The notes under the pieces are model-generated. The model did no database searches. It saw only the letters and a list, made by a program, of their open reading frames with translations, and had not been told where the DNA came from. This document shows, piece after piece, positions 22,328 through 23,542 of a DNA stretch of 64,000 bases (positions within the stretch are counted from its first letter, which is position 1; each line of letters opens with the position of its first letter). This stretch comes from a virus. The stretch lies in the IMG/VR virus record IMGVR_UViG_3300033145_001546, positions 1-64,000 of that record. One strand, given 5' to 3'. The position numbers and the translations under genes are program-made.

Positions 22328-22734
22328 AGAAAATCGAAAACTTTACTTTAAGCGAAAGGGAAAGAAAAATGAAAACGAAAACGAAAATCGAAAACTATTT
22401 AGACGCTCTAAATTCTCTCGGTTTCGGAACGCCGTCTTCCGACGACGATTCCGGGACGATAATATTAGACTCCGGCGATATTATCGAATTATCGAAATTC
22501 GAGCGGGGCGGGAAGGTTTCGACCGAAGACCGAAAAGTCTCTTTTTATTTTTCCGGCGTCTCGGATCTTATCGAAATTCTCTCCGGCGGAAAAGTCGTAT
22601 ATACGACCGCCGGAGAGACCGACGAGTTTTAAGAGTCTATAAAATACGGTCCGAGAGAATCCGGACCGGTTTTTATACGCTTTTAAGAAAATCGAAAACT
22701 TTACTTTAAGCGAAAGGGAAAGAAAAATGAAAAC
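22328..22734 (+). repeat. 49-bp direct repeat (22328-22376 and 22686-22734) spanning the RBS and start codon
   Basis: AGAAAATCGAAAACTTTACTTTAAGCGAAAGGGAAAGAAAAATGAAAAC occurs twice. Confidence 0.9.
22369..22632 (+). CDS. Early hypothetical protein (acidic, 87 aa)
   Basis: GAAAGGGAAAGA RBS; no Q, H, W, C or internal M. Confidence 0.8.
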   Translation: MKTKTKIENYLDALNSLGFGTPSSDDDSGTIILDSGDIIELSKFERGGKVSTEDRKVSFYFSGVSDLIEILSGGKVVYTTAGETDEF

Positions 22735-22963
22735 CGAAAAAACGGAAAAACGAGTAGAGTCGATTCTCGGAAAGGAAGCTTCGATTCTTTTCGATTCGGA
22801 ATTCGAGAGGATGGGGATTTTCCAGGTAGAGAATTCCGATTCGGAAAACGAAAAGTTACTTTCGGAATTTCTCTCGGCGGTCGGAAAAACGGTTTCGGAA
22901 ATCGACCGGGAAATTCTAAAAGGAATTATAAAAGAAGAATTAACCTATATAAACTCCTTCTAA
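22727..22963 (+). CDS. Early hypothetical protein (78 aa)
   Basis: Same RBS cassette; Glu-rich. Confidence 0.8.
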   Translation: MKTEKTEKRVESILGKEASILFDSEFERMGIFQVENSDSENEKLLSEFLSAVGKTVSEIDREILKGIIKEELTYINSF

Positions 22964-23018
22964 TTCTCCTTTTCGAGTAAAAAGCCTATAGACTACCGGA
23001 CCCGAAAAGGGTCCGGGT

Positions 23019-23271
23019 CTCTATACGCTTTTAGAGTAACTCTATACGCTTTTCGAGTAACTCTATACGCTTTTCGAGTAACTCTATACGCTTTTCGAGT
23101 AAAAAGACGAATCGATTAAAGACGAATCGATTAAAGACGAATCGATTAAAGACGAATCGATTAAAGACGAATCGATTAAAGACGAATCGATTAAAGACGA
23201 ATCGATTAAAGACGAAAGACGAATCGATTAAAGACGAATCGATTAAAGACGAATCGATTAAAGACGAATCG
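23019..23271 (+). repeat. Tandem arrays: 4 x 21 bp CTCTATACGCTTTTCGAGTAA, then 10 full plus 2 partial x 15 bp AAAGACGAATCGATT
   Basis: Read directly from the sequence; no spacers. Confidence 0.95.
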
Positions 23272-23293
23272 TATATTTTAGAAAGGGAAAGAA

Positions 23294-23542
23294 ATGAGTA
23301 AAAGAAAAAGCGTAGACGAGAAAATCGGGAATTTACTTCTTTCGGAAATATCGAAAGTCGATTTACTTTTTTCGATGTATACCGAATATTCCGAAAAACC
23401 GGAGATGGAAAAGCGAATAATCGAAGCGATAGTAATATATAATTCGCTTCGGGAAAGAAATCTTATCCCGGAAAATTCGGACGTAGAAGACTATAAATCG
23501 GCTTTCCCGAATATAAAAATGATTCCCCTAATGGAGGTATAA
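23294..23542 (+). CDS. Early hypothetical protein (82 aa)
   Basis: RBS cassette; no Q, H, W or C. Confidence 0.8.
   Translation: MSKRKSVDEKIGNLLLSEISKVDLLFSMYTEYSEKPEMEKRIIEAIVIYNSLRERNLIPENSDVEDYKSAFPNIKMIPLMEV

Follow-up and report, generated by a model that had tools for sequence, protein, structure and literature searches.

Natural selection has removed the TG step from both strands (CA and TG as read on one of them) in a ~3.3-kb module at the head of the early genes of an uncultured phage, and the proteins encoded there have been pushed into an alphabet of 15–16 amino acids. The best current explanation of the cause, ahead of plain avoidance, would be a DNA mark set in a TG/CA context, with the early module kept clear of it; judging from sequence patterns we put the probability of this reading at about 0.5.

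The window covers the initial 64 kb of one virus record of 77,255 bp, the ends of which carry no terminal repeat. Two blocks of genes meet near the module (Table 1): the structural and packaging genes run up to the terminase genes on the minus strand, and the early and replication genes start at 22369 on the plus strand and continue onward. Pfam and PHROGs matches among the plus-strand genes include a sigma-like factor, SNF2 and DnaB helicases, a primase, a clamp, an N6/N4 methyltransferase, a UDG-exonuclease with PolA, and RecA. Large terminases of isolate phages reach at best ≤36% identity to that of this phage, which has no close cultured relative; a megablast search of the zone region against isolate phages gave zero matches. 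Relatives were drawn from 80 loci fetched around large-terminase relatives of 44–59% identity.

Table 1. Features of the CA/TG-depleted module and its surroundings (window coordinates).
Feature	Coordinates	Strand	Remarks
Large terminase	18857-20335	minus	structural and packaging genes on the same strand up to here
Small terminase (TerS)	20322-21077	minus	
CA/TG-depleted zone	21215-24575	.	~21.2-24.6 kb, ~3.3 kb; between the small terminase gene (minus) and the early genes (plus)
Candidate host-type early promoter	21836-21863	plus	TTTACT-16-TATAAT; consensus match only
Leader	21864-22368	plus	~500 nt, CA/TG-free, rich in CCGG-type hairpins
Early gene 1	22369-22632	plus	87 aa, pI 4.35, net charge -7; zero Q/H/W/C, zero internal Met; stop TAA
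Terminator-like hairpin 3' of gene 1	22647-22668	plus	
Early gene 2	22727-22963	plus	78 aa, pI 4.66, net charge -6; one Gln (codon 33, CAG), one internal Met (codon 29); stop TAA
Hairpin of repeated inter-gene module	22996-23016	plus	copies 3' of genes 2, 3, 4 and 5
Tandem arrays	23019-23271	plus	CA/TG-free; 21 bp x4, then 15 bp x11.8; repeated at 23916-24107 and 24508-24541
Early gene 3	23294-23542	plus	82 aa, pI 4.97, net charge -3; four internal Met, zero Q/H/W/C; stop TAA
Transitional genes (23662-23862, 24131-24451, 24574-24798)	23662-24798	plus	CA/TG avoidance partly relaxed; TG reappears earlier than CA
Candidate DNA-modification cluster	36346-42994	plus	radical SAM A, fold-type-II PLP enzyme, radical SAM B (intein-split), 238-aa and 277-aa proteins

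The density of CA/TG is ~130 per kb genome-wide and 37, 4, 17 and 67 per kb in the four successive kilobases from 21001. The core of the zone (21816–23634, spacers included) contains nine CA/TG where ~235 are expected, and every one of the nine belongs to an in-frame codon of the three ORFs (the ATG start of each, five internal ATGs and one CAG). The purge is equally strong in the spacers, the leader, the tandem arrays, the synonymous sites and the codon junctions, and relaxes along a gradient downstream through ORFs 23662, 24131 and 24574. Because spacers, leader and arrays are purged as cleanly as codons, the constraint acts on the DNA and not on the proteins. Within the zone CG is ~3-fold enriched and TA mildly so.

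The promoter-like sequence listed in Table 1 is the best such site ahead of the early operon, and its −35 hexamer TTTACT is a candidate CA/TG-free substitute for TTGACA; the relative L043 also has a similar TTTACT element. A promoter of the Bacteroidota type was considered and set aside because of the Shine-Dalgarno-like gene motifs and the sigma-70-like TTTACT/TATAAT promoter. Rfam searches of 20.9–25.5 kb, leader included, gave zero matches. Across the zone the arrays consist of four to five 21-bp and six to 12 15-bp copies. The 15-bp unit at 23103–23271 carries ATCGAT, which occurs 10 times in the zone and four times elsewhere (16.7 expected); the later arrays have AACCGATT in place of the ATCGAT-bearing unit. 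On the terminase side, the CA/TG that remain in 21100–21610 are clustered in at least seven ATGCA, TGCAT and CATG motifs (e.g. GCATGC and CCATGG), which may serve as an operator or as an array recognised in packaging.

Gln, His, Trp, Cys and Met can be encoded only with CA or TG. The three ORFs contain a single Gln, His, Trp or Cys among 244 non-initiator residues, compared with 22.2 expected from the remaining proteome (binomial P=2e-9), or six compared with 28 when Met is counted (P=2e-7); every other ORF of the genome has at least 3.1% Gln, His, Trp and Cys. The choices that leave the protein unaltered follow the same rule, with avoidable CA/TG codons (TCA, CCA, ACA, GCA, TTG, CTG and GTG) used at none of 89 opportunities (25 expected; P ~4e-14) and CA/TG absent from all 247 codon junctions (43.5 expected; P ~2e-21). 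Ser, Thr and Pro are switched to NCG codons and Leu to TTA or CTN, replacing NCA, TTG and CTG, and the TAA stop is used in all three genes, whereas TGA is commonest elsewhere in the genome (47 of 96). A chance origin of this residue and codon pattern is excluded. The translations, when recounted, match exactly the residue counts given in the first-pass annotation, which had also correctly reported the uniform TAA stops and the avoidance of CA/TG across codon junctions.

All three ORFs are genuine phage genes and the first to be expressed. The evidence that they are genes is a ribosome-site motif in common with other genes, a coding-like base composition at each codon position, a conserved hairpin module 3′ of each gene, homologues of two of them, and the fact that the sole TGs tolerated are in-frame ATGs. 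The motif, TATTTTGAAAGGGAAAGAA, lies directly 5′ of the ATG in at least 12 plus-strand genes between 22369 and 31244, namely the three ORFs and at least nine genes downstream. The form before downstream genes, TATTTTGAAAGGG, becomes TATTTTAGAAAGGG or CTTTAAGCGAAAGGG within the zone, the TG being lost by a one-base change. ORF length was rejected as evidence for coding, as CA/TG-free DNA is without TGA and contains nine stop-free runs of at least 78 codons (3.6 in shuffles). The N-termini of several early genes are alike (MKTKTK in 22369, MKTEKTEK in 22727, MKTKE in 24131, and MKTETKTETK in L054:7793), which suggests that a translation-initiation sequence common to them reaches into the coding region.

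Homologues were found for two of the three proteins: P0002, with 68% identity to ORF 22369 (a 1235-bp contig of an ENA assembly), and P0004, with 72% identity to ORF 22727 (a 1090-bp contig of a Logan assembly). Both likewise are without Gln, His, Trp and Cys apart from the conserved Gln33, such that the restricted alphabet is kept over ~30% divergence, and the 49 substitutions between ORFs and homologues are all confined to amino acids other than these five. Met29 and Gln33 of ORF 22727 are both conserved in its homologue, within a perfectly conserved block. ORF 23294 has zero homologues in a set of 5.8 billion proteins, searches of IMG/VR and JGI metagenomes found no relatives of ORFs 22369 and 22727, and no homologues of the three ORFs were found in phages without the CA/TG bias. 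The first-pass annotation had held that selection on DNA overrides protein sequence. Its core stands, in that coding, synonymous, junction and non-coding sites are all purged and the alphabet is narrowed, and there is good support for the view that a rule at the DNA level has changed the proteins; 'overrides' is too strong, since the conservation of Met29 and Gln33 indicates that protein need prevails in the few places where function demands Met or Gln, and everywhere else the DNA rule does.

Among the relatives, L043, L054 and L068 have CA/TG-depleted stretches upstream of the small terminase gene, those of L043 and L054 at a position matching the zone of this phage. All five residue types are absent from the first zone gene of L043 (132 aa, pI 9.6) and from a zone gene of L054 (88 aa, pI 4.6). 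The TerS gene of L054 lies within the depleted zone (56 CA/TG per kb), and its product has the lowest content of the five residues among 47 orthologues (5.0%, median ~10%) and zero His; at the 10 alignment columns with a conserved Gln, His, Trp, Cys or Met it loses four, all of them His, a count that is weakly informative. G003 is a complete 73.8-kb relative with a syntenic replication module (45–63% identity) and a weaker, partial zone at the matching position, 2.75 kb long and three- to four-fold depleted; its record has 'direct terminal repeats', and the zone lies ~22 kb from the record ends, which does not imply virion ends. The syntenic loci L004, L009 and L013 have normal CA/TG at the matching place, and homologues of the three ORFs are absent from them. 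A different patch is present upstream of the small terminase gene in L017 (2601–3000), where 400 bp of 39–44% G+C contain 0–2 CC/GG per 200 bp and follow a CG/GC-rich block; this may be a small GG/CC-free zone.

Neither Pfam nor PHROGs contains a match to the three proteins. ORF 22369 has a predicted fold of a helix, five strands and a helix (pLDDT 73; good in one of five models) and ORF 22727 is a predicted four-helix protein (pLDDT 77, pTM 0.68), each from a two-sequence alignment; ORF 23294 is a low-confidence helical orphan (protein atlas). Foldseek searches of the PDB with the first two gave nothing at E<=0.001, and the best wide VIA-align scores for these models from two-sequence alignments (Z 7.8 and 6.5) are within the stated noise; the C-terminal domain of T4 MotA (Z 7.4 with ORF 22369) is at most a weak lead. 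The proposal of the first-pass annotation that these acidic proteins are anti-defence factors or DNA mimics is so far not supported: the acidity is mild (pI 4.35–4.97), a family or convincing fold match is lacking, and small phage proteins commonly have net charges like the −7, −6 and −3 seen here. Acidity is not tied to the phenomenon, since the L043 zone protein is basic and has the same alphabet. Gene position is what the idea draws on, and a role in host takeover or counter-defence is a guess from that position.

The remainder of the genome has a second anomaly. In 77 kb (the window plus L081), CTAG is absent where 151 copies are expected and GATC occurs 80 times compared with 304, and there are zero copies of TTTAAA, ATTAAT, TTCGAA, CCCGGG, AGATCT, TCTAGA, AACGTT, TACGTA, GAGCTC, CTCGAG and others. 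Such extreme palindrome avoidance, the classical feature of restriction-site avoidance in which short palindromes fall far below expectation, suggests that the host population carries many type II systems. The 64 six-bp palindromes were split by CA/TG content and counted outside the zone, with depletion defined as ≤0.2x expectation and the class without CA/TG confined to palindromes with an expectation of at least 5. Depletion affects 21 of 41 palindromes without CA/TG (20 with zero copies) compared with none of 16 with CA/TG (Fisher P=1e-4), and the sparing persists when CTAG and GATC cores are dropped (P=0.002). CA/TG is by far the most spared of ten dinucleotide classes compared. G003 has the same pattern (one of 16 with CA/TG depleted, 21 of 36 without; P=3e-4). 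On a natural reading of these counts, CA/TG-bearing sites would escape purging because they are shielded. In the GC-rich 67-kb record G001 (behind locus L075), which has no dinucleotide-free zone, it is AA/TT palindromes that are spared (0 of 12 depleted, 20 of 40 others), with a weaker effect for CA/TG (two of 15, 18 of 37 others).

The Pbunaviruses F8 and 14-1 carry thymine hypermodification 'in a TG motif', with about a quarter of F8 thymidines replaced, according to PMC12191111. The same test applied to F8 gives observed/expected ratios of 0.97 for CA/TG palindromes and 0.74 for others, and the 14 most depleted are all without CA/TG. F8 thus combines a documented mark with a signature in the same direction, and the signature behaves as expected. 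In the phage described here 22.5% of T is followed by G, which is close to the 'one quarter of thymidines' of F8.

A candidate source of a mark lies at 36.3–43.0 kb. The PLP enzyme encoded there matches PALP of Pfam (1.2e-10) and radical SAM B its Pfam family (1.2e-9), both above cut-off, whereas radical SAM A falls short of the curated threshold; both radical SAM proteins match phrog_13321. The 238-aa and 277-aa proteins have no Pfam or PHROGs family, a tblastn search with radical SAM A against isolate phages gave zero matches, and in the scanned ORFs neither Pfam nor PHROGs identified a dUMP hydroxymethylase, a 5-hmdU DNA kinase or a Pplase-type transferase. G003 carries matching genes for all five proteins. 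Three further relatives with common replication genes (G002, G004 and G005) have neither the cluster nor the zone nor special CA/TG sparing, and in G007 the cluster is present except for the PLP enzyme, the zone is missing and sparing is weak (two of 16 compared with 18 of 40). Presence of the cluster tracks the zone and the CA/TG-palindrome sparing among relatives; in this phage and G003 the zone, cluster and signature may descend from a common ancestor, as one event rather than two. The palindrome-sparing test and its co-occurrence with the gene cluster are new in this analysis.

The radical SAM B gene (38363–40841) is interrupted by an intein with a DUF559-type endonuclease and has a separate C-terminal ORF; its halves are contiguous in G003 (C1:41188–42594), where the insert is absent. 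Immediately 3′ of the cluster (42991–43869) is a PAPS-reductase-like gene of the DndC/BrxP type, whose absence from G003 and G007 sets it apart from the genes that track with the zone.

The preferred reading is that the phage probably marks its own DNA at TG/CA, on the T of TG or on a base of CA, most plausibly by thymine hypermodification, and that the radical-SAM/PLP cluster makes the mark. The mark would shield CA/TG-bearing restriction sites genome-wide, with unshielded palindromes being purged by mutation, and the early module, being free of target sites, would stay unmarked. Two benefits are plausible: the host polymerase could read the module immediately from virion DNA, or modification-dependent nucleases would be blind to it; a packaging or entry signal is a further candidate reason for keeping the module unmarked. 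The more specific proposal, of a TG-specific hypermodification made by an unrecognised radical-SAM/PLP pathway together with an evolved, unmarkable TG-free early module that would let the first genes be read and survive on naked DNA at the cost of a 15–16-letter protein alphabet, is tentative and falls somewhat short of even odds. F8 has a TG mark and no CA/TG-free zone; such a mark does not by itself produce a zone, which is therefore an adaptation in addition to it. Counting against the mark are the F8 case, the canonical pathway genes that were not recognised, the sub-threshold Pfam match of radical SAM A, the possible common descent with G003, the abundance in the zone repeats of ATCGAT, which is depleted elsewhere, and G007, which has the cluster (minus the PLP enzyme) without the zone.

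The strongest rival, which we nevertheless consider unlikely, is plain target avoidance with no modification, in which the zone, as the putative first-exposed DNA comparable to the first-step-transfer DNA of phage T5, would evade a host nuclease or many restriction enzymes that read sequences with CA/TG until the early proteins end the threat. The extreme restriction pressure evident in the missing CTAG and GATC sites and in the 20 hexamer palindromes with zero copies is in keeping with this, as is the location of the zone at the head of the early operon and next to the packaging genes. However, avoidance leaves unexplained why, in the remaining 74 kb, CA/TG palindromes are the one dinucleotide class left unpurged and why this tracks with the radical-SAM/PLP cluster among relatives, and the zone is rich in other short palindromes (CCGG, TCGA, GAATTC and ATCGAT).

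Mutation acting locally, for example through a context-specific deaminase or RIP-like hypermutation, could have turned CA/TG into CG or TA with the proteins merely surviving, as the enrichment of CG and TA and the replacement of NCA by NCG would suggest; this is quite improbable, as both transition products are in use, in one conserved motif the TG was broken up by insertion of a base (TTTTG to TTTTAG), what CA/TG is left coincides exactly with obligatory codons, and an alphabet held over ~30% protein divergence requires continuing selection. That the residue pattern is intrinsic to small, acidic and perhaps DNA-mimicking or disordered proteins (small acidic phage proteins are often poor in Cys and Trp), or that the ORFs are chance open frames of the kind common in CA/TG-free DNA, is more improbable still, given the equally strong purge of spacers, leader, synonymous sites and junctions, the confinement of retained TGs to in-frame ATGs behind a shared ribosome-site motif, homologues in independent datasets and the same alphabet in the basic L043 protein.

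The module is a clean natural case in which a DNA-level rule dictates protein chemistry, with conserved, functional proteins made without four or five of the amino acids. If the link to a TG mark is true, a dinucleotide-free early zone together with the selective sparing of palindromes with that dinucleotide would form a computational signature by which hypermodified phages, and the target context of the modification, could be recognised in metagenomes, and it would point to an uncharacterised modification pathway. It also raises the question of whether early genes are left unmarked so that the host RNA polymerase can read them or so as to escape modification-dependent nucleases.

The closest parallels are phages with TG-directed hypermodification. 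[quoted passage not shown] As in those phages, a two-base TG context would set the shielded sites here, as judged by the evolutionary palindrome test, and as in F8 the CA/TG palindromes are spared and others purged. The AGACC site of EcoP1_I contains neither TG nor CA. Wifceviruses are reported to be distant relatives of the Pbunaviruses and to resist all tested restriction systems except EcoP1_I (PMC11990801), and PMC12191111 reports that EcoRI, HindIII, XbaI, DraI and BsaI cut F8 DNA. Radical SAM and PLP enzymes are listed among the tailoring enzymes of hypermodification pathways in PMC13458397, and radical SAM and PLP genes are matched here. The mark is documented in those phages, whereas here it is deduced from sequence and canonical genes are not recognised; recognisable genes of the canonical pathway are likewise absent from Pbunaviruses (PMC12191111). 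The accessible parts of PMC12191111, PMC13458397 and PMC6449724 do not describe a TG-free early zone or reduced-alphabet proteins, and a limited literature search found no description of TG-free zones or reduced-alphabet early proteins.

The DNA mimics T7 Ocr and ArdA are small, acidic and first-expressed, as are the three proteins here, but have a dense negative surface charge compared with net charges of only −3 to −7, and no sequence or fold similarity between them and the three proteins was found with Pfam, PHROGs, Foldseek (E<=0.001) or VIA-align. The first-step-transfer (pre-early) region of T5 and BF23, taken with restriction avoidance, offers a broader likeness, in that selection on DNA words shapes phage sequence and small orphan early genes, grouped in a short module at the front, would have to work before the remaining genome is safe. 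A dinucleotide is, to our knowledge, too short for any known restriction site. The avoided word in this phage is a dinucleotide, and its regional ban removes four to five amino acids from the proteins encoded there.
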